From Haliotis rufescens (taxonomy: Eukaryota), in NCBI RefSeq assembly GCF_023055435.1, contig NW_025963868.1, positions 15,438,001 through 15,502,000 on the forward strand: 64,000 nt of DNA, read 5' to 3'. Positions within the stretch are counted from its first letter, which is position 1, and the number at the start of each line of letters is the position of its first letter. Both the position numbers and the translations under genes were made by a program. The notes beneath the pieces were generated by a model, which saw nothing but the letters and a program-made list of their open reading frames with translations, did not search any database and was not told the DNA's origin. This document shows, piece after piece, positions 2,831 through 49,616 of the stretch.

Positions 2831-3004
2831 ATCCTCGTCATCCCCAAATTTCACACAACGTTCCTAATAGTCGATTTGCAGCATTAACCATGTCTGGATT
2901 TCTTTCCAATTCAAACTTTTCTGGGAGCTATTCGCTAACTTCTGTTTCAAGTAAATGACGTTGCCGTAGCCCCCATTTTATGACGTTTGTAAAACCAAGG
3001 GACG

Positions 3005-10437: not shown

Positions 10438-13400
10438 ATGTCAGTTACATTTGCGGAGCAGTCATTGAAGACCTTGATCTATCTGGAAGTCACTGCACTA
10501 GCTGGTTTGAGTAAACAATATTATATTTTGATATTTATCAATATTTTATATTTATAAAAAAACCCAAACATTTGATGAATTGATACATGCTGTCAACTCA
10601 CCTTTGCAACATTGTAGAATTCTACAAAAGTAACGAATAATCATGTTGTCCAAGTTTTAAGTACCCCATGATTTCCTGCGCTGCGTCTAAAAACAGTATG
10701 TAGTAATACATAACCCAAGAAACAAAAGCTTTCAGAAAAGTCACTAGTTCGCTCGATTTAAGCTGTTGACTGTTGACAGCGTCGTCCATACTGTACGACC
10801 TCACCTCAGACCCGATGCCGGCCGTGGGAGAGAGGCCATTCAGTCTGACCTGTAGGCACAGCAGGGGCAACACCATAGCAACAGCACTCTGGTACAGGAA
10901 CTCCGTGAAGATGTTCCAAACAAGTCACCAGAATCCAACATCTGTTCTTGACAAGAACAGTGACCACGTGGAATACCTCTCAGTTGCTGAACGTATCGCT
11001 GTGGCAGCACACCTCCTTGGCCACACCCTCGTCCTAACCATCAACTCCACGCTTGATGCCGGGTCGGTGTGGACGTGCAGCAACGGCCCAGCGTTCAGCA
11101 ATGTTGTAAGGATCCAAGGACTTGGACTACTGCCTTGTAAGAAAGCAACCATTTGATTTTCGGGGCGTGAAGAGATTTGATCCTAATATATAATTAAGCC
11201 CCTGTTTTACTTAAAATAAGTTACACATGCCCTACCCTGTAGGAAACAAATAATGTGTCTTTACGGTCTATATTAAATATATTATATTAAAGTATCCAAA
11301 GAAGACACTGTGTTAATTCTATTTGGTGAAAACAATAGAGCACCTGTTTGTGATTGAGCTCCAACACATGTCTCCAACCTGCAGGGTTCAAATCATCCCT
11401 TCAGTGGTTGGACATGTAGGAAACCGTCGTACTTTATTTAATCATTCAGCAACCAATTCTTGCGGTAAGGGGCGACTATGGTTGTCGTGAGAGGCGACTA
11501 ACGGGGTCGGGTGGTAAGACTCGCTGAATTGGCTGATGCATGTCATCGTATCCCAGTTGCGGCATTAAACAAAAACAAAATAGTTTAATCATGTTTCTCA
11601 AAAATAATTTAACTGATTCATAGATTAGAAATATGTTCTTTGTACACTGTGACTGATCTTCTTTTACAAAAAATAGTAAAGTTTGATAACAGAGATTGTC
11701 AAAAAGGGTTGAAGATCCATAACATTATTAATAAAGCCGGTTATTAACATCCAAAACAAATATATTGAGATTTCAATACAGGGGCATCCTAAACCTCATA
11801 TAAACGTTGAAGGGTATAACTTGCAATCCCATTCAATGCTTGAGTCGACGCCCGGGCGATATGAATCTAGTTAGTCCCATAAAAGGGTCAATAAAGTTTC
11901 GCAATTAATCCACGGATTATTTGCGAAATAAAGTAGCAAGACTTTTACGTTTAAGTGTATGTACATGTGGATCATGCTAATTTACTACAATAAAACAAAT
12001 TAAACACAGGCGTGTATGCAAACAAGATAACATTCTGTATTTATATCTAACAAATGTATTCACTGCAAAATGTTGACAAATTCTGGGTATAAAAGACAAA
12101 TTAGCTGTGAAAATTATAGGAATGGATCAACTGCATATCAGCAAAAACCTATTTAATAACTATACTTAAAGTATAAATAAATTATTAGAATGACAGATGA
12201 TTATTAATGTTAACAGTGTGACCACACTAATTAGGATGTCTCTCCATATTTACCCAAGTACACACATCAGGTGTGATCACACCATTGTCCCCAGCAGTAG
12301 GGGTGTTAGGGAAACCTAGTAGTTACCCAGAAGACCCAGGTTCGATTCCCACAAGGATACAATGCGTGAAGCCCATTCAGCGCTGTGATATTGCTAAAAA
12401 CGGAGAAAAACCATAATCATTCATCCCCTCATAGCAATGTTTATCAAACTACACGTACTACATGCAAGTAAATATATCCCGGTACATGTAGATTTTATAA
12501 GACAAGAGACAAAATGCAAGTCGATCATAAATCAAATATCAAAAAGAATATTTAAGATAACCTTATCATGGCATTTGCAGTATTACGTCATATACCAATC
12601 AAAACAAGTTGAGGAACACCAACAAATTAAGCCCCTATCACATTTACGACTTTTATGAAGTAAAAACACATTAGTCACTAAAATTGAAGGACACAACAAA
12701 ATGACTCCCTCAACCCCCACCCTTATATTAAATAGTTCGCCCCTTAATGGTTATAATTTGTGGTCTAACAACTTATATGTAAATGTTGTTTTACGTATAT
12801 ACTTTTCATCGTGGAGAAACATATAAACATGACACAGGCCACCATCATGGTGGCCGAGAGGGGATATTGTCATGTTGTCGTTTAATCACGGCCGTAGTTT
12901 AAGGCGATAAAGCGATGTCCCCTCTCGGTCACCATAGTACACAGAAGGTAGTTCAACTTGTTAGGCTATATAGCCAGATAGCATGATAACTATCATTTTA
13001 TCAATAAATTATATGAACAATTACCATATATTATCGCTTTCTCTCGTCTCGTGTTAGCGTTTTCTACTTTGTTGCTATCGCTTTCTCGTCTTGTGTCATC
13101 GCTTTATCGACGCCATGACTGAAGGCGATAATGCAATGTTCCCTCTCGGCCACCATACTTTCTGGCTTCTATCGCTATTTCGCTCTCTCGCCTTCTCATG
13201 ATCAGTTTATCGCGTTCTCGTCTCGTGCTATCGCTTTCTCTTCTCGTGCTATTGCTTTCTCGTCTCGTGTTATCGCTTTATCGCTGTCTCGCGATGTCCC
13301 CTCCAGGCCACCATAGCAACTACCCAATAGCGAGGTGGTGGAAAGTGAATTGTTGTGTACACAGAAGGTGGATCACCTTGTAAAGGAAAGTGTTGTTATC

Positions 13401-15504
13401 GTCAACGTGATCGATACAACGGGCACAGGCAATAGTTGTTATCATCAGGTTGCGAAAGTCGTGGAGGAAAATATATTTTTACCTACCAGTCGCTTTCCTG
13501 TGTTTCCAATTAGATATGGACATGTCGTGTTTATTTATTTCTACTTCCGAAACGGGACATTTTGAAAATTGAGTTTTGTCTGGTTTCTCACAACATGTTC
13601 AATATATAGGTTTGTGTATGATGGATGGGGGCAAGAGTACGTCCACGATCTGCGCCACTCAGGGCTGACCCCGCCCATTACGCTGTGATATATCTAACCT
13701 GTATATTAACTCACTCCAGAGTCAGACGCTGGTACACATGTACAGCCGTGTCACTGACCGATGTAGACATTGAAACATTCCTACCCCAATATTCTGAAGC
13801 CTCCGTCATTTCAGATTCAGATTCCCCCATAATCTTTACACTGTCCGCCTGGACGCCAGGTGTTATCACTGTACAATTATAATAATTCATGTTTCATATT
13901 GTGTTGTAATCAATCTGTTCAGGTGAATCTACCATAACAACTCCAACTCCCCCACCGACTGCGACAACACCAGTACACTGCGCTGGCAATGTCACCCCAT
14001 GTTGTACGTAACACTTCTTGGTTTAGCTCACAGCAACGCCAAGACCATGTTAACATAACTTAGTAAAGTCTTGAACTATTTACCAAGGTAGATACAGTGA
14101 CTAGGCCATTGGGTCATTACATTCAGGTAGGGATACCAGACAGTATGGTAAAGCCCTCATACGTTTTGGTAGATAGGGAATAATAAATTTAATATGATTG
14201 TAATTAAAAAAGACATTATTTTTTTTTTATTCTTAAAATGCGATTTTATAAAACGGCCGTGTCTTCAATGACACTACAGCTTCTAAATATTTCTGTGTTG
14301 AGATGAGGTATCTGATTCGGGTAAGAGTTTCTGCATGACATCGCTCCAAGTCCAGTACCACATGAAGACACATGTTCCTGTTGGTGGTGTTTCAGATTCA
14401 ATCCTCGCCCCAGTAGCTGCTGGTGTTGGAGCTGTGCTCGTCATCGCCGTTGCTGTCAATGTCCTCATCTGGTACCGAGTGATGGGAACACACAGGCAGA
14501 AAACCAAAGGTGAATGAAATCATTGAAATGGAACTTAAATTAGTATATTAGAATTCTCCATTCAACACTGTGTGGTTTGTATGGCGTTCATCCTAACTTT
14601 AATAGGTTCTATAACATATGTCCTCAGCTAATGCACCCTCACAATACAGGTACAGTATGTCCCGACAGCGGTGGTGATTCCTGTGGTATTTACAGGTGAC
14701 TGAAGGTGATGGGGTGCAGGAGGATATTCAATCGCTCAAATGGAGTTCCTTGTTCATAATTATCAATGTCAAGCCACCACTGTTCACTAGGGCAATATAT
14801 AGATAGTTACACTAGTAGTCAAAGCCATAAATGAGTTGCTGTTGATGTTGATGAATCATGACCCTAGGAAATCGTTGTCATTAAGAACCTATTCCTATCC
14901 GAGGTATACCGAAGGGAAAAATATGAAGTCAGTGTTATTTAGAAACACAATCCTATCTGCCGTTTATGGTACGTATATTTCACTGTGTGAAGTACAATTC
15001 TGAAACACCTGTAAACACAGGGGACGGTCGGGTAGCCTAGTGGTTAAAGCTTTCGCTTGTCACGCCGAAGACCCGGGTTCGATTCCCGACATGGGTACAA
15101 TGTGTGAAGCCCATTTCATTCAGTCAGTCTAAACACAGGTCACTGACAATGTACTTCCAGATGTAGAACCAAGCACAGAAGAAAACGATTACAATTTGAC
15201 GCCTAACGGATGTAACCATGACAGCGGCATCTACACCGACCTCGTCGGCATCAGACCGGTGTCTCTCATTGAACCAATGTACAGAGACGCCATGGAGATG
15301 CACAGTGACCTTTACATCCACGCTGTCGACGACGAAGCTACCTACGAGGACACTGCAGTGCCCAGCAACCATCCCGACATGTTACAGGAAGGTGTGGCAG
15401 CGTCAGCTCATCAGGCTGAAGACTCGGTGTCGAGGCCCTGCATGTCACTGGACACAACACACACACCATCAGATACTGTTTATCGTCACACTAAAAGTGA
15501 ATGA
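10438..15504 (+). CDS. Gene A: single V-like Ig-domain membrane receptor with multi-Tyr tail (~320 aa)
   Basis: Exons: 10438-10504 leader, 10780-11136 Ig (LTC...WYR...DAGSVWTC), possibly 13815-13859, 13923-14003 T/P stalk, 14396-14509 TM, 15161-15504 tail. All introns are GT-AG, phase 1; sum is 963 nt without the optional exon. AATAAA near 15826. Confidence 0.8.
12847..13316. mobile_element. Cluster of MITEs of the atggtggccgagagggga TIR family
   Basis: TIR pair 12847-12937; further right ends near 13156 and 13316; TCGCTTTC-type internal repeats. Confidence 0.65.
15020..15129 (+). mobile_element. tRNA-derived SINE (family 2), shortened copy with TSD TAAACACAGG, in last intron of gene A
   Basis: A box tagcctagtgg and B box ggttcgattcc; TSD at 15012 and 15130. 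Confidence 0.85.
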
Positions 15505-16056
15505 CAAATATTTTCATATTTGATAGGGATTTACGTAGGTCTAAGCATCATTCCCGCAATATTATCGCGGAATGATGGTTTTAATTTAAGGCGGGAGAAC
15601 AAATATATCTCAGGATTTGAGTAGGAACTTGGAAGAGGCTATGATTTTGGTATTTATTTTTTTTCCGTAGAACTCGTTTTACCACTTCATTAAGGGTTAT
15701 TGTTTGAGATGGTGTAGGCGACGTCGTAATACATGTATGTCATAGTCGAATAATTAGTTTATTTAACATATGCTTTTATTACAGTATCCAAATATATGTT
15801 TTTGTTAATTCAAATTGGTTGTATGAAATAAAGAGCATACATTACTCGTAATTCTTTGTGTTCTGATTCCTCATCACGACAGGTCTTTCCAAGAATGATT
15901 ACTATAAATAGCACATTTACATTAATGAATACATTGTGTAATGTCCAGAGCTTTTGTGACGTCAGGAAGAATGGATGACACTATGTTCAATAACGAAAGG
16001 GATATGACGTCAGAATATGCCCCCAGTGTGCCCCCAAGACTCGAGAATGGATGATC

Positions 16057-19000: not shown

Positions 19001-19098
19001 ATTGCTGAATCCCTTCCCCCGGGTTGTTACATTGTGTCCTGTGGGATTGTGTGTCATGGTGCCCCGACTCTCTGGATCATTGCTGAATCCTTTCCCCG
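16057..19098. repeat. 78-bp tandem array, ~39 copies
   Basis: Unit GGGTTGTTACATTGKGTCMTGTGGGATTGTGTGTCATRGTGCCCCGACTCTCTGGATCATTGCTRAATCCCTTCCCCC; 26-aa period in the ORF track. Confidence 0.97.
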
Positions 19099-23366: not shown

Positions 23367-26300
23367 ATGGGATGGACGTCGGCGAGGCGTCGTTGGGTCT
23401 CTGCTCTCTGTCTTCACCTTCTGGTCGTTCATGGTTTGTATAGTGCGTTACATCCCAGTAAACAAAACGTACACTTCACCATACATTATTTCCGAAGTTT
23501 GCTATGTGCACTTAGCCAATAACAAGAAGCAAATAAGATAATAATATTTCTGATTTTACTATGCGAAAACATGATATATAATGAACTGGGTAGATCCGAG
23601 ATGCGGAAAATAAAAGTCGGTTCATAGCTCACTTCATCGGAAGCCAAAAAGCATCATAGTCGACAATTGTTTTTTGTAAAAGATGCTTTTTGAATATTTA
23701 AGCTGCTGCCAATTAATCTGAGTCAGTGTAAATTGTTATAAGGGTCAATGGCGGACCGCCGATCTCTAACAGCAGAACACGGCCTATCAATAGATTCAAG
23801 AAATACATGGTTTTATCTTAATGTTGCATGCTCTTAGAACTTGTCGCTTCATGGCCTTGGTAGAATTACTGGTGAATAAGTAGCATACTTCTAAGGCGTA
23901 GGCGCTTCCACATACCATGTGATCTGACTCGTATATTGAGAATTCATCTCACTGAGGTTTTGAATGAATATATGCTGTGTTAATTCTACACTTGCAATCG
24001 GCCAAATATGTGTGGGTAACATGAAACTTTTAGTTACATTATGTTACAGACTACAGATGCTACAGTATGTAGGATCAGCCATGTCATATAATATATAGAT
24101 ATATGATTTATGTATTTAATTTCCTTCACATAAACTGATTTAATGGAAAGCACATACGTTGTGATATGTTGCTTATATATCACACTAGACAGTACTTACA
24201 GTATTCAAGTAATATGTCATTGTACAGACAAATAGCTACACACATCTTTCATTTATTTCACACAGCATCTTCGTTGAAGTACCACCTTACATCTACACCA
24301 GCTATAGAAGGGCAGCCATTTACTCTGTCGTGTAGACAAGATCATACCATAGGAACTGCATTGTGGTACAGGAACTGGGTCCGGATTTTTCAAACAAATA
24401 GGAATTACCAGTTTGAGATGCTTGAAAAGAACACTGATCACGAGGAGTTCCGGTCTGTGTCAGGACGTATCTCTGTGCATGCAACTCTGATCCGACACAA
24501 CGTGATCCTCACCATCAACTCTACACTGGATGAGGGATCTGTGTGGAGGTGTGGTCTAGGGGAGGATTCTAGTGATAACCTGACAGTAAGGGTGGTCAAG
24601 CCAGTCACTGGTATGTAATTCGTTGCGGGAGACCAAGTAAATGTGTATGTCACTAGTATTATTTCACTGACAAAATCAATGTCTCCAACAAATCGCGATT
24701 TCAATAATTTCAGACACTTAATACGGGATCTATGTGGAGTGTAGGGGAGTATGATATCATCAACCTGACATTAACGGTAACTGATTCCACACGTGGTACG
24801 ACATTCACTTTTTATAAGGTATCACATGCAGCAGACTCAACATACATGCCAGAGGGTTACTCATACCCTCTTACTTAAGTCCACGTAAACCTGAAACTAT
24901 ACTGACTAATTAAGTAATCATCTTGATGTACTATGTCATGTGCATGTGTGGACATCTTGATCGTATTACTCCAAAACATTACAATACATTGATTGCTCCT
25001 CTAGATGCTAAACACGCATTCCACAGTTCTGCATTAAATGACGACCTAATTACTGGGTAGGGGTCGATATACAAAATATCCAAATCTTAAACCCAATACA
25101 ATACTTAATACAATCATAATGGCTAGTTTATTCTTCTCTGTAAGCCCGGCGGGCGTCAGAGCTGGTTCAGCCTTAGTGTAGTGGCACCAGAAGACTACTT
25201 GACAGAGCATGATGCTATACCTACATTCATGGATTTCCCGGTCTGGCGCTCGGCATTGAGGGGATAAAACAAGGACTGGTCGGCTCGGTGTCAGTTTTCT
25301 GTGTCTGAGTGGGGTATTCATGTTAAACTGCGGCCTGGTATCTCAGTGGGCTAGCACTATAACATCGGCATTAATGCGGACTTGTAGATTCAGCCACACA
25401 CACACATGCATGCACGTAAGTGCAATATTCTTGAACGCGACTTTAAACCCCATTTCACCTCACATCACCTCACCTCAACTCGTACATTCATAAGCGAGAT
25501 ACCCTTGCTTGTTTAATGATAATACTCATAAAATCAACTGTCCATATTTTAAAAAATTTGCATTTTATAATGTTCACATATTTCGTGACTACTATAGTTC
25601 GACACACCTTAAAAGCGTGTAATGACAAGAAAGGAAATAGAAAGTATAATTCTTGTGATTAACTAGAAAAACAAAATTAACATGAAAATTGCAGGAAATG
25701 GAAAGAAATGCTGATCACAGATAAAAGTTGCAATTGGATGCTTGTTTCCTGTTGAGGCACAGAATCGATCAGCAACACGGGCGTTTAGTACACAAGTATC
25801 ACACTTGTTAACCTCAGTATATCCCTGTGAAATAAGGATCATGTGTTATATCGATAACAATGTTTACCTTTTAGAAATATATAAATACTGTTTAATGTAG
25901 CTATGTCCCCACTTCACTCTCACTCACTCACTCACTCACTCACTCACTGTTCAGGTGAATCCACCACCAGAACTCCGACTGCCCTTCCAACTGCGACAAC
26001 ACCAGTACAGTGCGCTCGCGATGACACCTTTTGTAGTAAGTAGCGCTTTCTGATTTTAGTTCATATCAGTGACAGCATCACCAAGACCTAGTTAACATGA
26101 TTCACACTAGTTCAAGACTTGAACTACTTTCCACGTTAGATAACGTAACTGGACCGTGTTAGGTCATAACATTCCCCGACAAAGATGATATAGCAATCGG
26201 ATATTTTGTTAGGTACATATTGGAGAATAAATTTAAAATTGTTGAATATATAAAAGAAATCTGTTTCAACGCCTTTATTTATAAATCGGCCGTGCCTTCA

Positions 26301-28562
26301 ATGGTACTACAGCTTCAAAAAACCACTAACACAAATCCTAGTTCTATGTTGCATCTGATTTAAGTTAATATTCATTTCTGCATGACATCGCTTCTAGTCA
26401 AGTACACCATTGAGACAATTTGTTACAGTGGGTTTATTTTCAGAACCAGTCCTCGTCCCAGTAGCTGCTGGTGTTGGAGCGACACTCGTCATCGCCGTTG
26501 CTGTCAATGTTCTGATCTGGTACCGAGTGATCGCAACAAGGAAGCAAAAAACCAAAGGTGAATGAAATCATTCAAATTGAAACTATATACTCCCCAAACA
26601 ATAAAGGGGTATTACAAAATAACAGAATAACACAGAAATACAGAGAGGTGTCGAGTTGTGGTAATATGTGGGTAAGAAAAGGAAGGGCTAGGTGTAACAT
26701 GACAATCAATAGAACACGTTGGAGATGTATTGTAAGGGTGTAAATAACTAAGCAATACGACACAAGTGTCAAAATAATTAATATTTGAGGTGACTTGACA
26801 AAAAATGGGTGACACGATTGTTCAAACATTCGTTTATACCACGAAGCATGGTCCGAATCAATCTCCCAATGACAATTTGGGGGTGTCTTTCCATTCCTCT
26901 TATAGCGTCTGGACCAGTTCGGCTGATGAAGCGAGAGGCCTCTAACGTCGGCGTACACGTCTCCAAATCATGCTTTATAGGGAATGCTCAGGACTCTTAA
27001 TTAGTTTGCTGCTGGAGGTAGTCAGTCAAGGTGGGCACGAACGTTGTCGTACTGAAAGACAAAACGTGGATCAGCATTGCGCGGAAACCAGTGTCGCCAG
27101 CATGTTGTCTCGGTAGTTCGGTCCAGTGATCCTTCTGTGGAAGTGCAGTGGCGCTCCGACAGTCACAGTGATCCCGCCCCTTATCATTTCAGACCCAACC
27201 CCAACTCTGTCGTGTTGCCTGACGTTGACGTTCGCATGGCGCTCGTTACGACACCTCCTAGACACGTCCACGATTTTCCAGAAGGTCCAGAGTGAATCTG
27301 GAAACATTATACGAAACTATCGGATACACCCCGAGTTTCTACGCCCATTGGCGTCTGGAGAGAATGTGTCGATTCGTTGACGGTGGTACATGACGTAATG
27401 GTCGAGCATGCAGAGTAGCTGCATGCAGATGAATTCTTGTTGTTTGGTTATTAACTTGCCTTCTGGTGGCATGGCGCAACCGAACAGACATTTGATTGGC
27501 TGTTTAGGCTCGATTTCTGATTAATCTATCCTTGACTTGTGTTGTTGAGCTTGGGCGAAATGTGCGGTGCCTATCATTAAAACTGTGTGTCTGCAGAAAC
27601 CTGTTCCAAAGTCTGTTAAGGACAGACTGAGACACATCGAACGCACTGACTACCTCTCGCCGAGTTCTACCAGTTTGAAGCATGCCCATATCCCGTTATT
27701 GTTCGTCACGTTGTAGGCGATGCATTCCCAATCTGATAACAAATACTACAGTAGATGAAGAGAAGTATACGTGTTACTGGGGATAATGAAACTCATGACC
27801 AATGGCTCAGAGCGATTTGACGACCTTCTACTGAAGTGTCAAACTCAATAATGTCCCCTAACCCATGAGCATGGATGCATTGCAGGGTCCAGGAACAACG
27901 TTTCGGGTGTGTTGGGGCGTTTGGTTTGGTTCACTGGCTGTCATTTTCCAAAGCTGATCTTTCTTCTGAAGACCGATGGAAAATATATCATACATGATCC
28001 CCTACTCATTTTAGAGAGTGTTAATACTAAGTGGTTTGTACGTCTTCCATCCTGATGTTAATATGTTCTCTACGTCACAATATGTGTACAATACGTTTCG
28101 ACACTGAAGGGAATTCTGCCTGACATATTAAGAGAGGGTGGTCAGTCATGGTGCGTGTCATCATTATTCCATGGCGTGGCCCTGCTCATGCCTTTAGTCA
28201 CTAGTAAGTTATGTGCGTATGTTTACGAGTTGCTCAGACTTTCATCATTGAACAACGACCCCTCAATCAATCCACGCATACCTCTCGGTGCCAACTCTCG
28301 GTGAAACAAATCCTAATAAATGACACTTTCAGATAAAAAAGCCAGCACAGTAGAAAACAACGAGTACAACTTGACGACCTATGGCGATCATCATGACAGC
28401 GGTGACTACTCCGACCTCGCCAGCATCAGGCCAGTGTCTCTCATAGAGCCGATATACAGAGACGCCATGGAGATGCACAGTGACATCTACATCAACGCTG
28501 TCGACGACGAAGCTACCTATGAGAGTCCTGTGTGGGTCCGGGACCATCCCGATATATCCTAA
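23367..28562 (+). CDS. Gene B: single V-like Ig-domain membrane receptor with multi-Tyr tail (278 aa)
   Basis: Exons: 23367-23433 (MGWTSARRRWVSALCLHLLVVH), 24266-24610 Ig, 25955-26035 stalk, 26444-26557 TM, 28333-28562 tail; 837 nt, open frame. Leader, stalk and TM exon sizes (67/81/114) equal those of gene A. AATAAA near 29092. Confidence 0.85.
25140..25480 (+). mobile_element. SINE family 3 with conserved central domain (Meta-domain-like); second copy at ~47410-47730
   Basis: Both copies share ggcgctcggcatt...aacaaggactggtcggctcgg...tgtctg...gttaaactgcggc.tggtatctcagtggg. Confidence 0.65.
25912..25948. repeat. (CACT)n microsatellite abutting the acceptor of the gene B stalk exon
   Basis: Read directly. 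Confidence 0.95.
26750..27730 (-). pseudogene. Decayed Tc1-like transposase in last intron of gene B
   Basis: GMLQTGRTRREVVSAFDVSQSVLNRLWNRFLQT...RPSSTT HTH region plus degenerate DDE segments. Confidence 0.75.
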
Positions 28563-32059: not shown

Positions 32060-32862
32060 GCAGTGAGAGAGAGCCATCGGTATGGCCGAAATTGGGGCAA
32101 CACAGGTCCAAATTGCCAGAAGGTTTGGTTGTACACCATTGACAGTAGTCAGGCTGATTCAACGGTACAGGCAGACAGGGAGGACACAGGACAGACCTAG
32201 AACCGGACGACCCAGAGTGACAACACCACTGGAAGACGGTCAGATACGGCTCATTCACCTGCGAAACAGGTTCGTGATGGCGACGGCAGCAACAGCGTTG
32301 GGACATCCCATTAGCCAACGTACAGTACTACGACGACTTCGTGCTGCTGGAATCCGAGCGTATCGTTCTTTCCGAGGAATGGCACTGACTGCTCAACATC
32401 GACGCCTGAGACTGTGATTGGCGAGGCAGGTTCGACGCTGGCAAGTGAGAAATTGGCGTCGAGTGCTGTTTACTGATGAAAGTCGGTTTAATTTGTTTCG
32501 AAATGACGGCAGAGAACGAGTTTATCGACGCAGAGGGGAACGTTTGGCCCCGGCGTGTATTCGAGAGGTCCATCCATTCGGCGGGGGAGGTGTCATGGTG
32601 TGGGGCGGTATTTGTGGAGATCAGAAGACTGATTTGGTGATTATACAGGGAACCAAGTGTTGCAGCCAGTTGTGCTTCTGTTCTTACAAAACCAACAGCA
32701 GGGGACATTGTTTCAACACGACAATGCCAGATCCCGTACTGCAAGACTGACTCGGAAGTTTCTAAACCAGCAGAACGTTGACGTTTTGCCCTGGCCTGCC
32801 CACTCACCCGATATGAATCCTATTGAACATCTGAGGGACCATCTTGACAGACAGATTAGATG
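32060..32862 (+). pseudogene. Tc1-family transposase pseudogene
   Basis: HTH, GRPRVTT, VLFTDESRF, VMVWGGI, FQHDNAR, WPAHSPDMNPIEHL; one stop and a deletion/frameshift. Confidence 0.92.
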
Positions 32863-32984
32863 TTTCAAGATCTCAAGATGTTTAATAACCACTGCTTGAG
32901 TTCAAAACTCAACTTAGTACGAACTTGTGCATGAGCATGAATTTGAGCATGAAACTGAGTTGATTTGTTTATAGCCTCGGGGCC

Positions 32985-33375: not shown

Positions 33376-34984
33376 GTTGTGAGACGTGAGTGCAGTTTAT
33401 ATTTATGTATCTTAACTTGAGATAAGGTTCAGTACCTGATAAGTTTATAGATCAAATCTACCCTACTTCATGTTTGATCAGGCATCTAGCTTGCAATTTT
33501 GTTGAGGACAAACTATGTGCCCTATGATGGATATTTTCGGACACACCCATGTCCTCTAGTGATCCAAACTTATTAGGCAATTTGATTTGGTGAGGAGTAT
33601 CCGTTTTCACCCATGTCAAGTCTCTTTGGCAGTTTATTGACAAAGTGGATATTAGCGAAGAGCTTAATTTCAGCGCAGTGGTCAGAGGGTGTCCTAGTGA
33701 CGGATGCGTAAGTTTCATTTGGCTCTTGGGTTTGGACAAGTGTTTTTGCAGCAGCAACACTGATGTCCTTGTGAACTTAATTATGTAAATGTTCCTTGTT
33801 GTTTCCAGAAGATATGTGATTTCCTGAACAGGCCCCCGGTACATGAGTATTTTCTCTGCAATGTCGTGTAGATCGATGCTCATGATGGCATTTACTGAAT
33901 TGTCTTTCCAGACTTGATATTTTTACAGACCGCCGTCATACAGCTGGAAAATTGCTGATTGCGGCGGCGTTAAACAAAGAAATAAAGAAACAAATAATCA
34001 CTGCACTGAACAAATGAAATAGATTTTGTGCAAATATTCACACCATGGACGTATATTTGGCATTTGAAACATCTCAGAGGGGTCTCATATAAGGGGTGCA
34101 TACATTTGTTATGGTGAAAACATCACCAACGACGTGACCAACAACATTAAAAGGCACACCACTGGTATGACACATAACAATACAAATGATACGACTGAAT
34201 CTGATTTTTGATTCACCTGTAAACATATAACAATTTGTTTCAGGAATTATGGTTACCTTACTGAGATTTCAAGGCATGAGGTTTCACTGTGCAATATTTA
34301 TTGTATGACATAAATTGATATTTTGAAAACGATATTACCCCGTAAATATGCACATCGTATATGAGGAAGTAGATACCGCTCCCTCAAACATATCAGCAAG
34401 GAAAGTTTCACACGTGTGCAGTATTCATGAATGATAATACTTATAATAAGGTCATGTACGGAATTATATTTGTTGACATTATATACAAATTGCACACTTT
34501 ACATTGGTGGAGTTCAATAACATCGCGTTCTCGACTGCATGATTGTCGCAGGTCTTGCCACTTCGATGCACCAACAACGCAAGGTAAGGAATGTTTTGTT
34601 TAACGCTGCACTGAGTAATATTGAAGCTATATGTATATAATTTAGTATGGACCAGACAATACTGTGAATGATATAACGAACAAGGATTCATGCCGTGGGA
34701 TACGATGACAGCAAACAGATCAATTTACCGAGTCAGACCACCCGTTCCTTGGTGCCTGTTGAAAGTAAAACTATTTCTGCTTCCAGGGCACGAATGGCAC
34801 AGTCGTCTAATTAAGGTATCGCAATTCGCTGTACAGAGCTGCGTCGTTTGGACATGCCAGACACATGTACCTATAATCGTGGGATGGAATCCCGGCTCGC
34901 CCTGATAATGTGTCTTGGTCTTTAAGCACCATATCCGTGCTCGTTGGTTTCACCAAAGTGGTAAAGGTGTGCACCATTTCGGGC

Positions 34985-35660
34985 TTTCCTCCTTCCGTGA
35001 TATCACTGCAATACTTTCCTCCTTCCCTGATATCACTGCAATACTTTCCTCCTTCCCTGATATCACTGGAATACTTTCCTCCTTCCCTGATATCACTGGA
35101 ATACTTTCCTCCTTCCCTGATATCACTGGAATACTTTCCTCCTTCCGTGATATCCCTTCAATACTTTCCTCCTTCCGTGATATCACTTCAATACTTTCCT
35201 CTTTCCGTGATATCACTTCAATATTTTCCTCTCACGCCGTGATATCACTGAAAGACTCGTCCTTCCGTGATATCACTGCAATACTTTCCTCCTTCCGTGA
35301 TATCACTGCAATACTTTCCCCCCTCCGTGATATCACTTCAATACTTTCCTCCTTCCGTGATATCACTTCAATACTTTCCTCCTTCCGTGATATCACTGCA
35401 ATACTTTCCTCTCACGCCGTGATCTCGTTGGAAAACTTTCCTCCCACGCCGTGATATTACTGGATACTTTCCTTCCACGCCGTGATGTCACTGGAATACT
35501 TTAATTCCCTCCTTCCGTGATATCACTGGAATACTTTCCTCCCACGCCTTGATATCACTGGAATACTTTCCTTTCACGCCGTGATGTCACTGGAATTTTT
35601 TCCTCCTTCCGTGATATCACTGGAATACTTTCCTCCCGCGCCGTGATATCACTGGACTAC
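34985..35660. repeat. 30-bp minisatellite (TTTCCTCCTTCCGTGATATCACTGCAATAC) inside a SINE-like element
   Basis: Tandem units followed by ...gcgtcgttaaacccaactcactcact tail. Confidence 0.9.
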
Positions 35661-36153
35661 TGTCCAAAGCGTCGTTAAACCCAACTCACTCACTGGCTCA
35701 CCCCAAGTAGAATCGTTGCATATGCTGTCAAACACTGGTCTGCCTTTATTTACACACACACCCCTCCTTCTTGACACAGCTGTTATATTGCTGGATACGG
35801 AGTAAAAAAAATTTCATTCTTTCAAATAACAATAAAATAGATTGTCCTCCTGTAAACAAATCAATGTTATTGCAACATTCTTGTCCAAAAGAAAACCATG
35901 ATATATCTGTTGCAACAGATTTTATTTGTAAACATGTCACAAACATGAGTATGAGCACGTGCTTGCGTGCGTGCGTGCGTGCGTGTGTGTGTGTTTGTTG
36001 ACACGCACCCGTATCTTGGTTTTTTAATGTTTAATGTTTATACACCCGAAGAAATCACTTCCACTATATTATCAAATGTAATAACTATTAGAGAGCGTAT
36101 TTGAATCTTTCGAAGTCTTCGCATATTTTCTTTTGTAATAACAGGTCTTGAGG

Positions 36154-39100
36154 ATGGGGTGGACGTCGGTGAGGCGTCGTTGGGTCTCTGCTCTCTGTCT
36201 TTGCCTTCTGGTAGTTCATGGTTTGTATAGTGCGTTACATAAGGTAGTTGCTTTTCATTGTGTTAATGTCTGGTTTTGTTTTCTCTACAGTGTTATTTCT
36301 CATTTTACTCTGAGATAACATCATGTACAACCACGGGGTAGATCCGTGATGTGTAAAATTGTCGCTTTATGAACTTGGTAGAATTTCTGGTGAAAAGGTT
36401 ACAAACTCGTAAGGCGTGGTGGCCTCCATGTACCTTATGATCTCACCTTGTATATTGGAAATTCATGTCACACAGGTTTCGCAAGACCTGTGTTAATTCT
36501 ATACTTGTAATCAGTCAAATTCTGTTCACTGTGCACATGCATTAAAAGATAATATCATATGTATTGGTAACATGAACATTTTAGTTACATTACATTGCAG
36601 CGTAATACTTGCTACAGTATGTAGAAATCAGTCATATCATATAATATATACATATATGATTAATGGATTATATTTTCTGCACTTACACTTATTTATTGGA
36701 CAGTGAGTGAGTGATTGAATATTTATAGTCACATCGGCAATTTTTCAGCCATATCGTGACTAAATCAAGTTAGTTTTATTGGACAGAACATACGTTGTGA
36801 TATGTTGCTTTATATCATACTAGACAGAACTTACAGTATTCAAGCAATATGTTATTGTACAGACAAATAGCTACACACATCTTTCATTTATTTCACACAG
36901 CATCTTCGTTGAAGTACCGCCTTACATCTACACCAGCTATAGAAGGGGAGCCATGTACTCTATCGTGTAGACACGATCACACCATAGGAACTGCACTGTG
37001 GTACAGGAACCTGGTCCGGATTTTTCAAACAAATAGGAATTTCCCACTTGAGATGCTTGACAGGAACACTGATCACGAGGAGTTCCGGTCTGTGTCAGGA
37101 CGTATCTCTGTGGATGCAACCCCGATCCGACACAACGTGATCCTCACCATCAACTCTACACTGGATGAGGGATCTGTGTGGAGGTGTGGTCTAGAGGAGG
37201 ATTGTAGTAATAACCTGACAGTAAGGGTGGTCAAGCCAGTCACTGGTATGTAATTCGTTGCGGGAGACACAGTAAATGTCATTAATATGTCACTATTATT
37301 ATTTCACTGAAACAATCCATGTCAGAAACAAATCGCGATTGCCACAAATTCAAACACTGGATAAGACATCTATGTGGACCTGGCGCGTAGGGGAGTATCA
37401 TTGTAGCAACAATAACAGTAACTGAATCCACCATTCACAAAATGAATGGGAGATGTGGTTCTGACTCGGATGTTGGTGAATTTACGTACGTAGATCATAA
37501 TGGGACCAGTGTCATTGATTATGTTATATGTTGACCACAATCTTTTCATTGCTGTACTGATTTTACTATTACACCAAGAGCTGAATCATCGCATCTACCT
37601 GTCACTGTCAGCCTACAATCAGCAGATGTCACATGTCCTAGACATTTAGGTGACACACCTAGTAATACAGGTGATTGTTCAAGTTTGTGTGGGATTATGA
37701 TAAGAACGAGCAATTTCAAGATGCTTTTTTACTCTGATAGTGTACACGAATTACTTCACAGATCAATGGAAGTGGCACTCTTCTAGGATTATTCTCTCAC
37801 AGTTTCGCACGTCGAGCAGTGATCTTATGGTATCACAGGGTAGAAAGTTAGGTATTCCAAAGTGTGAAAGACTTTGTCCATTTTGTATCATTCCAAGTGT
37901 AGAAACAGAATACCATGTTTGTTTAGTTTGTCCGTTTTATGACGATCTTAGAAGAAACTTTCTGCCAAGTTATTATTATACATCTCCATCAGAGCATAAA
38001 TGTAAGGTTTTATTTACCACCAGTAATGCTTTCACAATCAATAATCTTGCCAAGTTTACATTTTTTGCTCTTAAAATGAGGAGCAAGCAGTTGTCCATTA
38101 TATAAACTACTAATTCTACCACCATATGTATATGGTCTCAGATACCCTTGTACGGATTAGTATTGATATTACTACATGCACTTGTGGCGCAACATGTTTG
38201 AATGCTTGAATATATATATTGTAAAATGGGCCTGTGGCCTGATTTACTGAAATAAACCACTACTACTAATGGGAGTGGCACTAACTGATATTAATGAGAG
38301 TGTGCAATGTTTGGTTGAAGGATTGTGTTAGTCATATATGTGTATGAGAAGGAAAGTTAGTCGAAGTATTACAGATAAGAAATGGTTTGATATTGAGTGT
38401 GAATTCCTCACAAAGAAAAGATGTAGGTGCTTTAATATACATAGAAAAAATAAAGATGCAGAATCCTTATCAATTTACAACCAGGTTAGAAATAAGTATA
38501 ATAGTACATGCAGAAGTAAAAAAGGCAATACAAGGCGAGACAGCGAGAAAAACTAGAAAGTAGCATAAAGTATCCAGAAACGTTCTGGTCTACTCTCAAA
38601 CACTCGGATGGTAAGAGACAGGTTTATAAAAATGACATAAACATAGATACCTGGAATATACATTTGAGAGACTTATTTTCTTTTGACAATAACAGTGAAG
38701 ATTTGCAGGAAGACATCGAAATAAACAGTGAATAGGCTAGTTTAGTAGCTGACATATTATATTTTCCTATTTCAAGAGAAGAAATCACTTCAAATATACA
38801 AAGATTGAAAAAAGAAAAGTCTCCTGATATTGACAACGTAATACCCGAGTTTTTTAAGAATTCATCAGATATAATTGTCTCATATTTAGAAGTGTTGTAT
38901 AATGCTATTTTTGAACATTCCAATTTCCCAAAGATTGGTCAGTGGGCATTATCATTCCTTTTCACAAACAAAGGTAATGTAAATGATACCAATAGCTACA
39001 GAGGCATCACATTATTAAGCATACTGAGTAAAATATTCTTAGATATCATTAATAGAAGATTAGTATTTTGGGCTGAATCATTTAAGAAAATAGATGAGAC

Positions 39101-42100
39101 ACAAGCTGGTTTTAGAGAGGGGTACTCAACTATAGACAACAGTTTTGTGTTACATTCCTTAATTCAACGTTATTTATCAAGTAAATGGGGGAAAAACGGA
39201 TGCGTTTTTTGAAGGTTTTTCTAAAGCATTTGACTCAGTTAACCGTGATAAACTTTGGGCCTTGCTTAAATTACAAAGAGTAAGCAGCAAGATGTTGAAA
39301 CTGTTATCAAGTATCTATGAACAAGTAAAGGCTTCTGTAAGAAGTAATGGCAAGTACTCAGAAGATTTTGAATGCAATGTAGGCGTTCGACAAGGATGTA
39401 TATTAAGTCCTTTTCTCTTTACTTTCTGGGGCGGTCGGGTAGCCTAGTGGTTAAAGCGTTGGCTCGTCACGCCGAAGACCCGGGTTCGATTCCCGACATG
39501 GGTACAATGTGTGAAGCCCATTTCTGGTGTCCCCCGCCGTGATATTGCTGGAATATTGCTAAAAGCGGCGTAAAACCATACTCACTCACTCACTCACTCT
39601 CTACTTTCTTTATTAACGTGCTGGCAGAAGAAAAACAAAAAACAGCTACACCCAGATAGTGTTAAAATATTTTTGCTTCTGTTTCCCGATGATGTCGTAA
39701 TGATTCCGAGTACTGTACCCAGATAGTGTTCGACAAGGATGTATATTAAGTCCTTTTCTCTTTACGTTCTTTATTAACGTGCTGGCAGAAGAAAAACAAA
39801 AAACAGCTACACCCAGATAGTGTTAAAATATTTTTGCTTCTGTTTCCCGATGATGTCGTAATGATTCCGAGTACTGTACCCAGATAGTGTTCGACAAGGA
39901 TGTATATTAAGTCCTTTTCTCTTTACGTTCTTTATTAACGTGCTGGCAGAAGAAAAACAAAAAACAGCTACACCCAGATAGTGTTAAAATATTTTTGCTT
40001 CTGTTTCCCGATGATGTCGTAATGATTCCGAGTACTGTACCCGGACTTCAAAGTCAGATAAATGTGCTGGAGCAATTTTGTGAACAATTTGGTTTAAGTG
40101 TTAACACAAAAAAAGAACAAAGTTATTGTGTTAAAAAACGGCGGTATGTTATCAAAAAGGGAGAAATGGTTTTACAAAGAAAGTTACAAGTTATAAATAT
40201 TTGGGAGTACATTTTTCTATAAAATTATCTTGGAATTTCCATTCAATACAGGCTGCAACGCAAGCAAAGAATAGTCTTTATAGGGTACAAAAACGTCTCA
40301 GATCTATTGAGAGTATAAATTTTAATCTATTTTAAATTTTTTTACACAAAATAAAGCCAATTCTACTATATGGGGCTGAGGTTGGGGTGTACATCAGCTA
40401 GATTTGAATGAAAGGGTGCATGTATATGCATGCAAAAGGTATTTAGGAGTGAAGATAAACACCCCCAATGTAGTATTGGTTAAGGTTATTAAGGTTGCCA
40501 TATGATAGATACCCAAGAAAGTGTTATGAAATGATGGTATTGTATGACAAAAATGGAAAGCAAAACTGGGTTCCGTCGGTTAAAAAGCTCAGTGATGATT
40601 TAGGCTCAGGTTATGCTTGGCAAAGTCAAAATTTAGATTGTCCTGAACATTTTGTTAAATTGTGTACACAAAGGCTCTAAGATACGTACATACAAAAGTG
40701 GAATTGTTTGTTAGCTTTAACGTCAAAATGTCAGTACTTGAGTTTATTTAAAACACAGTTTATAACTGCAGAATATCTTTTTAAAACCACTCTTGTACAA
40801 ATATAGAATTGCATTTTCTAGATTCAGATGCTCATAACATGAATTAAATATGGAAACGGGAAGATATTCCAAAATCCCAAAAGGAATTAGATTATGTAAA
40901 ATGTGTAATCTACAGCTAATAGAGGAATCAAAAGTCAAGAATCAAGAATTTTTATTGTACAGAACACCCTCGTAGGGCAGGGTACAAACTATCTACATTT
41001 GGGAATAAATATAACTATAAACATGAAAGGTAGATATACATAATGTACATTATAGATGAGTACCATTTTGTTCTCTTTTGTCCATTTTATCAGAATTTAC
41101 GAATTATATACCTACACCCATCAATGTACTAATTTCCAAATATATTTAAGTTTAATGAATGATATCTTCTACAAGTATCAATGTTCTGAAGCCTTTGACT
41201 GCGTATATATTCCATGCGATGGATTGTAGAAATGACAAGATGAGTGACTTAAATAAGTAGAAATCAATATGTCCATCCACTATCCACAAAGACACGTACT
41301 ATAGGCCTATGGCCTTTTAGTATTTCTGTAAGAAAGATTGATTGAAAGATTGATTGAACAAAGAACCAAATCGTTTGCCATAGACTTCTGTTGTAACGTT
41401 ATATTTTATCTTAATAATAGGGTACTCAACAACCATGTCATGTGCATGTGTGAATATCGTGATCTTATTACTGCATTGCATTACAATGCATTCTGCATTA
41501 AATGGCGCTTACTTGAAATTATATGCGGACACAATAGCTTCACTGATGATTCAAAGAGAATACAGGACAGGGATATTGACAACATCTTGGTCAGCTTTAA
41601 TTACTGGTGGGGGTAGATATATAAAACATCCAAATATTTGATTGAGAAATATCTCGAATCCGGAAAAAGAATCAGAGTGCCGGACGTAACAATATTATGA
41701 TAGATATATGTTTCTCTATACTGACCTATAGTTCCGTCAACAAAACTCCGAAACCCAGATCACTGGTCACAGTTGTAATTTGATGCATGAGATTCTGTTG
41801 AAGTACACAATTGATCAATACAAAATATCACACTTGTTATCCTTAATATTTTCCTGTGCGTTAAGGGCCATGCAATATTTCGACAGTAAACGTATATGAC
41901 TTTTGAGAAATACATGACTATTTAACTACGAAGTCCAAAAAGAAACTAATAATAATTCACAAGAATAAAATACTCACGCTGCTGGGGATGTACGTTGAAT
42001 GAACGGCTTCATTAACACATTCAGGTGCACAACAGATAGATGTGTATCATGTTTTAGTGTTTTAGTGTTTTTCATGGAAGTATTAACAAGGGATAAACAA

Positions 42101-43302
42101 TACATTAGTTGTATCGTTAACTCTTAGCAATATATTTTTACCACAGTGTTTTGCTTCATATAAGGTTCATCGACCGGCAGCCCAGGGACTAGTGGCAACT
42201 ATAATGATGTCATGGCTGAAGGTAATCGTTGTTGAATGTTTATAAATTTGTATTGATAGTTTTATACAGTAAATAAAGTCACAAAGATCGTTGACCACCT
42301 TAGCAAAGCATCATAGTTTAGCTTGTTGATGCTATATTTGGTTCAGCAAACAGTTCTGTACGCAAAGTATGACATACTGTAAAGCAAGCAGTAGCCTAAC
42401 GTACATCTAGAGACACTGCGGCTTGTTTCAGATTCATCCCTACCTCCTCTTGCCACGGCTTCTCTAGGGGGAGCACTGCTGGTCATAATCACTCTCACTG
42501 CACTGATCTGGAGCTGCGTGGTAGGACAACGTAAGTCGGAAAGTCAAGGTAATGAACGATCTCAACACCTCAACATATGCACCTAAATATGGTCTGTGGG
42601 TGCATATAATCGTACTCCAAAGTTGTAACTTGTCTGGTCCAATCTCTATGACGTATGAAGCGTTGTAGTGGCATATAACTGCCATTGACGCTAAATACAA
42701 TTGGCCCACTCCCCCGAGGCAGAAGAAACAACCAATATCAAACATGTGCACATAAATGGCACGTATCAAATGATTAGAGCTCAGTATTTCCAGATTTGAA
42801 TTAGGTACACTATGCCTGAAATGGGTTGAAAAGAGCATCTTTCATATCATTGTCCTTTGAGGCTGTAGACCTGTCATTTGAAATAAACTGACGATATTTT
42901 CCTAATGTTTTCCTATATTGTTTATCTAATTATTGATTATTGAGGAGTCTGTCTAAGCAACTTGATCATATTTATTTTACAGCTGCTTTGCCTTCTCGGG
43001 ACGACATGACAATCAGGACTCCGAGGACACAGACATTGTCACTGATACCAGAATCTCAAATGCAGACACTGAACCTGGAAGCTTATGATTTAACTGAGAG
43101 TTTTCAGCCAGAAACACAGTACAGTCAGGTCAAGAAGTCAGCCAGGAGCAGTCAAGATCACCCACAACCAATATACAGCGTGGCTTGTAAGCCGATAAAG
43201 CCCACATGGGGGCAGTATCCAGGAGATGCAGGTCCTCAGCCCTGTAACTTAAAGGTGCCAGCAGTTAAGAAGATGGTTGACGAGCAGGGATCGATAATCT
43301 AA
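36154..43302 (+). CDS. Gene C: single V-like Ig-domain membrane receptor with ITSM-like tail (301 aa)
   Basis: Exons: 36154-36220 leader, 36901-37245 Ig, 42165-42221 (GSSTGSPGTSGNYNDVMAE), 42432-42548 TM (LATASLGGALLVIITLTALIWSCVV), 42983-43302 tail with TQYSQV and PIYSVA; 906 nt, open frame, all phase 1. Confidence 0.78.
36703..36775 (-). mobile_element. Very short 5'-truncated retroposon with (ACTC)n tail and TSD TTATTGGACAG; relatives at 44783-44840 (TSD CCTTACTTAAGA) and 45960-46020
   Basis: gagtgagtg...acatcggcaat...cagccatatcgtgac; absent from the homologous intron of gene B. Confidence 0.75.
37430..41330 (+). mobile_element. Decayed LINE ORF2 (CR1/L2-like) in intron 2 of gene C, with a nested LINE 3' end at ~37760-38268
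   Basis: RT motifs SYRGITLLS, QAGFREGYSTIDN, GVRQGCILSPFLF, LLFPDD; C-terminal CPFC...ETEYH zinc motif; many stops and frameshifts. Confidence 0.9.
39428..39598 (+). mobile_element. tRNA-derived SINE (family 2), full length, inserted in a LINE RT region
   Basis: A and B boxes, (ACTC)n tail, TSD including TACTTTCT. Confidence 0.92.
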
Positions 43303-47274: not shown

Positions 47275-49616
47275 ATGGATATATACAAGCTCTCAGTCAT
47301 ATCTTTGGTCATAATGAGGACAATTGAAGGTAAGTTGCATGGGTGGAAATTCTTTACTTATTTCCTGGATTTCTACTTTGAGGAGAGTTGACCTATTTCA
47401 TAGAACAGACGGTCTCCGTGTTCTCGAGTACAGAGCATCTAAGAGAGTGGAAGGTAAGTGGTTCGATCGCCTGGCCGCGTCATACCCAAAGACGTCGAAA
47501 GATGGTACTTGTTACCTTGCCAGGCGCTCGGCATTAAGGGGCTAAAACAAGGACTGGTCGGCTCGGAGTCAGTATATCGTGTCTGGGCGGAGTCCAAGTT
47601 AAACTGCGGCATGGTATCTCAGTGGGTTCGCATTACAAAACAGACATTAGTCCAGGACCAGTACAAGCAGTGACGCAGCCACGCACGCACACGCACACAC
47701 ATGTTCGTCGCTTTAAACGTCAAACCCAATTTATCTTTGCTGTAGAGGAAACTGATTATGAGTTTATATCGCGAGTCAATTGTTACAGTTATCAAGCATA
47801 GAACAATAGGTACACATGCCTTTTGTGTTTTTCGCACAGCATCTTCGTTGAAGTACCGCCTTAAATCTACACAAGCTATAGAAGGGCAACCGTGTACTTT
47901 ATCGTGTAGACACGATCACACCATAGGAACTGCATTGTGGTACAGGAACTGGGTCCGGATTTTTCAAACAAATAGGAATTACCAGTTTGAGATGCTTGAC
48001 AAGAACATTGATCACGAGGAGTTCCGGTCTGTGTCAGGACGGATCTCTGTGGATGCAACCCTGATCCGACACAACGTGATCCTCACCATCAACTCTACAC
48101 TGGATGAGGGATCTGTGTGGAGGTGTGGTCTAGGGGAGGATTCTAGTAATAATCTGACAGTAAGGGTGGTCAAGCCAGTCACTGGTATGTAATTCGTCGC
48201 GGAAGACCAAGTAAATGTTATATATATAACACAAGTATTATTGTACTAAAACAATCCATGTCTGAAACATATAATATCACGATTTCCGAAATCCCAATAA
48301 ATGTACTGCTGGTGAATACCGAATGTATTTCATGAATTACTTAATAAGGTCAAATCGGTGGGTTCTTTATGTAGATGTGGTCAGGTTTGGTAAAGTTTGG
48401 TCTAGTTTTAATGCCTACAGTTCACGCTCTTGTCAATATACTTACAAGATACTTTTATATCTTCAGTTTGTCCTTATAACATTATGGTTCTTGTCACAGA
48501 CGGGAGTACAACCACCCAACCCCAGACAACATCCATCGTTAGCAAGACAACTACAACTACAGAAGCTATGACAGAAAACAAAGGTTTGTTAAAGTTTTCC
48601 CGAGATTCAAGTATTTATGGCCAAACGTGCAAAGAAGCGTTTAAAAGCCAGTCTAGTTTTAATATTCTTCCTTTCAATTGTCATGTTTATGTTATGGCGT
48701 TGACACACAGGGCGCCTGGGTACATTGGAATATTGTGTACATATACAAGTGTATATATGAGTTACTGTGGCACGTACGACATGATGACATAACAGTGTAC
48801 ATTATGTGTTATTGCATTACAAATGACACTGTATATCAATCTTTTTTAAGTGAAAAAATATGGAACTAAATTGCACATATAAGTTTTATACAGATCAAAA
48901 ATCATATTTCATCTTCAACACACACCCCTCTATTATTTATTCTTTTGTCGCAGAATATCCGGCAACCCATGCCTTTATCCTAACCATGTGTGGAACTGCC
49001 TGTTGTCTCACCCTTGTCATAGGCAGCACCATAATCTTGTTTGCGAGGAGTCGCCTCACAGCTGGACCCGGTAAAAGACTTCACAGTATATATGATGAAA
49101 TATACTTGACAATGCAATAGATTATGTTACTTAAATGATCGAGAAGAGTTCGTTTCCGGTAACAGACATAACAATCAATTCTTTTATAAACTAAAGTTTT
49201 CGCTTGGGAGGACGTGGGTTGGGCAGTGAGTGAGTGGGTCATCAAATTGCGCAGAACAAAGAAATATTCAACTGTTGAAAAACAATAGTCATCGTTTAAC
49301 ATGTACATCTGCGCCATATGTACGAATTCAGAAAAGTGAAACATTTTTTAAAATGATACATTTACATTCCGCTTTGTCCCGTTCATAGTTTTGGTGATTT
49401 TGACAGCTTTTGACTGCAGGGAACTGTAAAATATTATCTGTTTACAAGCTGTCTGATGATACAAGTTGGTAACGTACGATTCATAATGTCCAACTCTGAG
49501 ATCGGACGTAGTGTTTTAGCTTTTAAAGCCTAAGTACACTGACAATTATTTGATCTGTTGCAGATGATAAAACCACAGCAGGATCTCAAGCAAGACCACA
49601 GCAGGCCAGACAGTGA
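47275..49616 (+). CDS. Gene D: single V-like Ig-domain membrane protein with short Tyr-free tail (217 aa)
   Basis: Exons: 47275-47329 (MDIYKLSVISLVIMRTIE, donor gtaagt), 47840-48184 Ig, 48500-48583 Thr-rich stalk, 48954-49070 TM (AFILTMCGTACCLTLVIGSTIILFA), 49564-49616 (DDKTTAGSQARPQQARQ*); 654 nt, open frame. Confidence 0.75.

Follow-up and report, generated by a model that had tools for sequence, protein, structure and literature searches.

How do three neighboring genes come to carry nearly the same immunoglobulin (Ig) exon in front of tails that differ from one another? The question is raised by a 64-kb stretch of the Haliotis rufescens genome (G000:C90:15438001-15502000), referred to here as the window, which holds four tandem plus-strand genes, A to D, of a five-exon, single-Ig membrane type.

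Four tandem single-Ig genes and their parts

In the models of all four genes, the exons follow the order leader, Ig, stalk, transmembrane (TM), and tail, and every intron is in phase 1. The models of A, B, and D match proteins P0010, P0001, and P0158, respectively, and the model of C matches P0002, the N terminus of which is longer. The window proteins are identical to Haliotis rufescens records titled "uncharacterized protein." The parts of the genes are as follows.

10438..15504, + strand: gene A (P0010), with its own leader and a tail homologous to that of B
10780-11136, + strand: gene A Ig exon, not homogenized, 48% amino acid identity to B, C, and D
23367..28562, + strand: gene B (P0001), with leader 23367-23433, Ig exon 24266-24610, and stalk 25955-26035
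26444-26557 and 28333-28562, + strand: gene B TM exon and Tyr-rich tail exon
36154..43302, + strand: gene C (P0002), with leader 36154-36220, Ig exon 36901-37245, and stalk 42165-42221
42432-42548 and 42983-43302, + strand: gene C TM exon and tail exon, the latter with one ITSM-like motif
47275..47329, + strand: leader exon of gene D, 55 nt long, with a homolog in the H. rubra P0004 leader (0/2000 shuffles)
47450..47690, no strand assigned: repeat within D intron 1, present in many copies and not a positional homolog
47840..48184, + strand: gene D Ig (V-like) exon, phase 1-1, homogenized with B and C
48500..48583, + strand: gene D Thr-rich stalk exon
48954..49070, + strand: gene D TM exon, a hydrophobic stretch without a charged residue, three Cys
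49564..49616, + strand: final coding exon of gene D, giving a Tyr-free cytoplasmic tail ~26 amino acids long (model P0158)

Intron 2 of gene C (38200-41300) contains a broken non-LTR retrotransposon-like sequence, recognized by eye, and the same interval holds a 161-nt tandem repeat (39597-40045) as well as a SINE-like copy (39424-39602). The segments at 32000-32870 and ~26900-27750 are, as judged by eye from their motifs, putative Tc1/mariner-like transposase remnants. Tandem arrays (units of 69 nt, 78 nt, and ~30 nt) occupy 3004-4076, 16056-19097, and 34984-35665.

Identity among B, C, and D peaks at the Ig exon

The Ig exons of B, C, and D are 94 to 95% identical (328/345 nt for D/B, 325/345 for D/C, and 324/345 for B/C), with dS of 0.07 to 0.11, dN of 0.035 to 0.062, and dN/dS of 0.33 to 0.89. 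The encoded domains share 87 to 92% of their amino acids and the stalks are unlike. In the gene A Ig, silent sites are saturated. A sequence-only reading of this locus had placed the similarity of D to B and C from about 35 nt before the acceptor to a fading end past the donor, and it was recovered there as a single block ending 88 nt after the donor. The segments involved are as follows.

47805..48272, + strand: D block similar to B and C, 90% identity, from -35 to +88 nt around the exon
24139..24644, + strand: B side of the B/C homogenized tract, from -127 to +34
36775..37279, + strand: C side of the B/C homogenized tract

The D block is layered. Its core at 47840-48218, made up of the exon and the first 34 intron nt, differs from B and C by 5 to 12%, and the outer flanks (-35 to -1 and +35 to +88) differ by 22 to 27%. 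A weak extension reaches about -88 (~47753) and is equaled by 8/1000 and 9/1000 shuffles; past +88, no D-to-B/C homology was found (476/1000 and 384/1000 shuffles). The remaining matches of D introns and flanks to A, B, or C lie at nonequivalent positions and are dispersed repeats that recur in the window. Because these other matches are repeats, there is no extended homology of D to B and C, nor is identity uniform across exon and introns; both had been named in advance as observations that would speak against a local exchange. The leader, TM exon, and last exon of D have no protein-level match to B or C, and its stalk gives a weak DNA score only (z about 3) and no protein score, as expected from the earlier claim that these parts of D are unrelated to B and C.

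B and C are colinear from the promoter to the end of intron 2 and differ by 16 to 26% in five promoter and intron segments. Around the Ig exon, from -127 to +34, the difference drops to 5.6 to 6.1%, in agreement with the proposal that B/C identity is highest there. A second identity peak lies at the leader (5/87 differences), and the leader exon is 92.5% identical. The Ig peak extends to sites that do not change the protein: silent exon differences between B and C number 5.5/82, compared to 231/1062 in introns and promoter (Fisher P = 0.001), and the last 127 intron nt before the Ig exon show 7/126 differences (Fisher P = 3e-6). Likewise, D and B differ at 8/80 silent exon sites compared to 22/84 sites in the D flanks (P = 0.009). 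A genome-wide search with the D tract returned 16 matches. Besides D itself, these were B and C at 90%, a 126-nt patch at 93%, and a further 12 that did not exceed 82%.

A partial tract in gene E and the wider Ig family

Gene E (L032:6266-6601), located 16 kb past the window end, is a two-Ig gene whose Ig exon 2 is only 57% identical to D in amino acids. A 108-nt patch inside this exon differs from D at 5, from C at 7, and from B at 8 positions.

48025..48132, + strand: D Ig segment matching the 108-nt patch inside E Ig exon 2

Silent differences between E and D are 2/30 within the patch and 29/46 outside it; with borders picked after inspection of the data, permutation gave 0/20000 for third positions and 30/20000 for same-residue codons. 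In 23/23 other family exons, the same segment has a pS to D of 0.36 to 0.75; this set excludes two near-duplicates, a locus interrupted by a stop, and 41 of the 71 family matches. Since the patch lies inside the E exon, it argues for conversion and not for whole-exon shuffling. No TM or tail exon of E was found in the 30 kb scanned, and the best TM-like stretch is flanked by stops, so E may be truncated.

The genome search for this Ig family gave at least 71 matches at E of 0.001 or better, and 18 of the 19 further family proteins looked up, out of 150 listed, carry Haliotis names. The 3′ half of the Ig exon is the most conserved stretch across the family. On contig C157 (~7.10-7.24 Mb; L008, L011-L015, L017, L021-L026), unlike Ig types are 85 to 92% identical in the 3′ half and differ in their 5′ halves. 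Among 27 exons, the 86 within-cluster pairs have a median silent difference of 0.08 in the 3′ core versus 0.22 outside, and the 265 between-cluster pairs have medians of 0.45 and 0.55, the pairs being nonindependent in both sets and the values uncorrected for multiple testing. One two-Ig locus occurs on two contigs at 92% identity (L009/L018 versus L010/L019; C30 and C576) and is either a haplotig or a recent duplicate.

Three tails and a mosaic of modules

Behind the one Ig stand three tails, which are Tyr-rich in B, ITSM-like in C, and Tyr-free in D. B and C had been taken as one type, and this has to be given up because their tails differ and the tail of B is homologous to that of A. The stalk, TM, and tail of B are 77 to 85% identical in nucleotides to those of A; the C TM exon is only distantly related (33% amino acid identity), and the D TM exon has no detectable relation. 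By module, A thus combines leader A, Ig A, and tail AB; B combines leader BC, the shared Ig, and tail AB; C combines leader BC, the shared Ig, and tail C; and D combines leader D, the shared Ig, and tail D. Within B, the change from one relative to the other can be localized.

25887..25947, + strand: gene B switch point, where C-like intron 2 ends and A-like stalk, TM, and tail start, beside a (CACT)n repeat

Because the change from C-like to A-like sequence falls near the B stalk acceptor, a tail swap probably took place at this intron 2/stalk boundary. The tails of A and B are 15 to 24% apart although they lie 12 to 13 kb from each other, a distance like that between homogenized exons, which means that not every similar segment is homogenized. 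An A/B-type tail was found in 3/181 candidates. Among 314 candidates, a C-type tail was found only in C itself, which is weak evidence as to other species, and the sole genomic match to the stalk and TM of D was D (1/1), no second gene having been found.

Ig domains group by species rather than by gene at the protein level

Clustering of the Ig exons by species and not by gene had been suggested as a check on conversion, and it is seen at the protein level, among predicted models, in both H. rubra and H. cracherodii. The H. rubra models P0003 and P0004, from the locus LOC124274401/402, are adjacent in numbering and have unlike leaders and tails. Their Ig domains are identical at 109/115 residues, the last six being the only differences (clade support, 100/98), and are 71 to 76% identical to B, C, and D. 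P0003 has a B/C-type leader and P0004 has a D-type leader (0/2000 shuffles each), and the D-type leader of P0004 goes with an A/B-type tail. The stalk of P0003 has no match in A to D (715 to 1982 of 2000 shuffles). It follows that the leader types predate the Ig match of either species and that leader-tail pairing differs between species, the latter being read from one model, P0004. Ten-residue repeats resembling the first Ig strand precede the domain in P0003 and P0004, in unequal copy number.

The H. cracherodii orthologs of B and D are P0008 and P0019, respectively. The D Ig of this species differs at 5/114 residues from its own B and at 11/114 from window D; the non-Ig parts of the D orthologs of H. 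rufescens and H. cracherodii differ at 5/84. Of the 23 variable Ig sites in the H. rufescens/H. cracherodii set, none is split by gene and one is split by species (support, 72/75). In the comparison with H. rubra, AU tests rejected Ig grouping by tail or leader type in 4/4 cases (P of 2e-6 or lower). For H. cracherodii, a D-ortholog clade was rejected (P = 0.019) and a B-ortholog clade was not (P = 0.06).

Gene D in sequencing contigs

In contigs, guessed to be RNA, of two related organisms designated B and C, the D Ig exon passes directly to the TM exon, with no intron between them, and for organism B the join continues to the last exon. This means that D is spliced and that the link between Ig and tail is conserved. 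A contig of run X7 passes from D intron 1 into the Ig exon. In that run, every covering contig has the B-type letter at 47889, 47892, 47899, and 47901. All four are silent and fall within 13 nt, which makes it likely that a short tract at 47889-47901 varies among D alleles.

The D Ig of organism B is 28 nt shorter (window 47901-47989; runs X12 and X15), in DNA- and RNA-type contigs from two studies. This loss would break the reading frame, and it is likely that organism B has a frameshift in this D allele or in the gene as such. In H. rufescens D is intact, and the H. cracherodii D model extends through the TM exon. In run X12, only one contig crosses the middle of the Ig exon, which is what either a single copy or identical copies collapsed into one would give. 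Noncoding sequence differs by ~3 to 4% between the window and organism B (18/616 and 15/397), slightly below the silent divergence among B, C, and D, which suggests that most of the homogenization is about as old as these species splits or older.

Ig fold and signaling features

The Ig exon is predicted to fold as a V-type beta sandwich (model pLDDT, 93), and the Foldseek matches listed (probability, 1.0; TM, 0.53 to 0.68) are for the most part V domains of nanobodies, antibodies, and TCRs. C22 in the B strand, W33 in the C strand, and C95 in the F strand are invariant in 27/27 family exons; the tyrosine-corner position is occupied by Trp. The curated Pfam V-set cutoff was not reached (15.9 bits versus 26), and none of 7 proteins passed any Ig cutoff. 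From the V-type fold, the shared exon may be ligand binding. Variable Ig residues are concentrated in the N-terminal half (18/23), and dN/dS between B and C is ~0.9; the specificities of B, C, and D may therefore differ. The Ig of C has an extra Cys near the C-terminal strand, which, with the three Cys of the D TM, could be a site of dimerization or palmitoylation.

The tail of B has six tyrosines, that of C has four, one of them in a TxYxxV motif, and that of D has none. The tails were scanned for ITIM, ITSM, and ITAM patterns; for ITIM and ITAM, the form used is that given in bioRxiv 10.1101/2022.03.04.482883. In the 5 scanned tails, no canonical ITIM and no ITAM was found, the sole near-motif being the TxYxxV pattern match in C. 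In A to D, no charged residue occurs in the hydrophobic TM stretch. By these features, D looks like a nonsignaling decoy or modulator.

Siglecs have a V-set domain followed by C2-set Ig domains. The present layout of one Ig exon followed by a Thr-rich stalk does not match this, and no sequence evidence that A to D are Siglecs was found. Of the features of paired receptors given in the accessible part of PMC5701461, very similar extracellular Ig domains, with similarity kept by conversion and grouping by species at the protein level, are found here; an activating member, marked by an ITAM or by a charged residue in the TM for an adaptor, is not. The likeness to SIGLEC5/14 drawn in the sequence-only reading therefore stands for the homogenized Ig exon and is not supported as to class membership, there being no canonical ITIM or ITAM, an uncharged TM in D, and a Tyr-free D tail. 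B, C, and D fail classical paired-receptor membership, yet they may work like one.

Probable recurrent gene conversion and its alternatives

Four observations form the basis for a conversion reading: identity that peaks around the exon even at silent and intron positions, the grouping of the Ig by species, the partial tract in E, and the mosaic of modules. It is likely that recurrent gene conversion among the tandem genes B, C, and D re-copies the Ig exon and that occasional crossovers swapped leaders and tails. As judged from sequence comparison, recurrent conversion with occasional module swaps appears well supported.

The process would be nonallelic recombination between same-strand neighbors separated by 11 to 32 kb, in which most events end in conversion and some in crossover. 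Pairing would be seeded in the conserved 3′ half of the exon, and conversion could then spread to the whole exon and the intron edges. E and C157 would represent early stages and B, C, and D the full stage, and conversion would have run separately in the H. rubra and the H. rufescens/H. cracherodii lineages. The older flanks of D may record an early cassette move; their 22 to 27% divergence fits early exon shuffling as well as a long, old conversion.

Whether the homogenized exon serves a function is a separate matter. Selection may hold one ligand specificity on different outputs, with a multi-Tyr docking tail on B, an ITSM-like tail on C, and a nonsignaling decoy or modulator role for D, a reading that we put forward tentatively. 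Conversion could also be real and yet a neutral by-product of closeness and similarity, with no functional set, and this too is a serious possibility that falls somewhat short of probable; it competes with the functional reading and not with the DNA mechanism. Family-wide core conversion needs no selection: the within-cluster silent difference is lower in the 3′ core than outside it (0.08 versus 0.22, compared to 0.45 and 0.55 between clusters), and the unlike Ig types of C157 and gene E have only this core in common. N-terminal variability, the absence of activating features in D, and the apparent frameshift and loss of D in organism B point the same way. A functional set is favored, on the other hand, by whole-exon matching in two distant lineages while the equally close tails of A and B (12 to 13 kb) stay 15 to 24% apart, and D is intact in H. 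rufescens and reaches through the TM exon in the H. cracherodii model. Slightly less probable is the full proposal of an independently evolved abalone paired-receptor system, in which a V-like recognition exon would be matched by conversion over docking, inhibitory-like, and decoy tails, with conversion seeded in the 3′ half throughout this large, uncharacterized Ig family and with crossovers at the common exon re-dealing leaders and tails between species.

The D Ig had originally been put down to conversion or exon shuffling; conversion holds up, and one-off shuffling alone does not. A single transfer of a symmetric (phase 1-1) Ig cassette into D, never followed by further exchange, would suit a gene in which every intron is in phase 1, and the outer layer of D, where the flanks diverge by 22 to 27%, like B/C introns, is compatible with one such ancient move. 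However, it leaves unexplained the younger core (silent differences 8/80 versus 22/84), the patch within the E exon, and the near-identical H. rubra pair, homogenized separately and 24 to 29% from B, C, and D. One-off shuffling as the sole cause is contradicted by these three observations and is improbable, though it may have been the first step.

Purifying selection after old duplications could keep an exon alike, and the 3′ half is indeed the most conserved part of the family, just as the B/C leader exon is 92.5% identical. This explanation is very improbable, however, because the match extends to silent sites and to 127 nt of intron, dN/dS is 0.33 to 0.89, and the same domain differs by 24 to 29% between species and groups by species. 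Collapsed or misjoined copies, to which near-identical exons easily lend themselves, are the least probable source, because the copies differ at 17 to 21 of 345 nt, an X7 contig spans D intron 1 and the exon, contigs of two other organisms join the Ig to the D tail, and separate models of B and D exist for H. cracherodii.

Comparison with known systems

The recurrent-conversion reading places B, C, and D beside several described systems, which are compared here from the accessible parts of the cited sources. The CEACAM family offers the closest pattern, followed by SIGLEC11/16. In CEACAM1 and its ITAM-bearing partners, similarity is highest in the IgV (N) exon and barely enters the introns, N exons group by species, and conversion and reciprocal recombination have been proposed along with a decoy role (PMC2832619). 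CEACAM pairs, however, set ITIM/ITSM against ITAM-like tails and have known pathogen ligands (PMC2832619), whereas the abalone genes have three tails, no ITAM, and a Tyr-free D. SIGLEC11 and SIGLEC16 resemble B, C, and D in being neighbors (~9 kb, compared to 11 to 24 kb here) with repeated lineage-wise conversion, and also in relaxed constraint and a frameshifted partner in some lineages; their tract covers ~2 kb over several exons, compared to a single exon in abalone (PMC5701461). SIGLEC5/14 (PMC4042635) is placed here beside SIGLEC11/SIGLEC16 as a comparison. The activating Siglec member relies on DAP12 and on a charged residue in its TM (PMC2832619), unlike abalone A to D, which have no such residue.

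Among invertebrates, the Hydractinia Alr genes also form a cluster; they encode unusual single-pass V-set proteins whose similarity is a mosaic from domain to domain and whose tails are diverse. There, exon shuffling diversifies domains and the tails have true ITAMs and ITIMs, and a V exon shared across unlike tails is not described in the accessible text (bioRxiv 10.1101/2022.03.04.482883). In the Botryllus fester/FcoR cluster, intergenic recombination likewise mixes ectodomains and intracellular parts, but the tails are alike and the ectodomains differ, the reverse of abalone B, C, and D (bioRxiv 10.1101/2024.10.16.618699). Within the same genus, VERL repeats are homogenized above 95% by conversion or unequal crossing-over; these repeats sit within one egg-coat gene, whereas the B/C/D exon spans genes with different tails (PMC2704960). 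The Biomphalaria PTC2/TM1 clusters are a gastropod parallel, made up of rapidly changing genes for single-pass membrane proteins with a presumed immune role, and the accessible part of the source mentions gene conversion in general terms only and has no ITIM or paired-receptor statement (PMC13712769).

Meaning for abalone receptors

In the mollusc and abalone literature searched (mostly open-access titles and abstract openings, without supplements), no report of this Ig family or of an Ig exon shared across tails was found. As far as these searches reach, the mechanism is known from vertebrates, the family is undescribed, the phylum is new, and the three tails, one of them decoy-like, are a twist of their own. 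In mammals, receptor pairs maintained by conversion are a signature of host-pathogen conflict, and a mollusc parallel, if true, would show that the paired-receptor design is convergent. If the functional reading is true, one recognized target would lead to different signals, as in vertebrate paired immune receptors. Even if the process is neutral, the history of the exon differs from that of the gene, and so orthology calls and selection scans mislead unless they are made exon by exon. B, C, and D, with A as a control, provide concrete genes for work on ligands and signaling in abalones, which are both farmed and endangered and for which descriptions of immune receptors are sparse.
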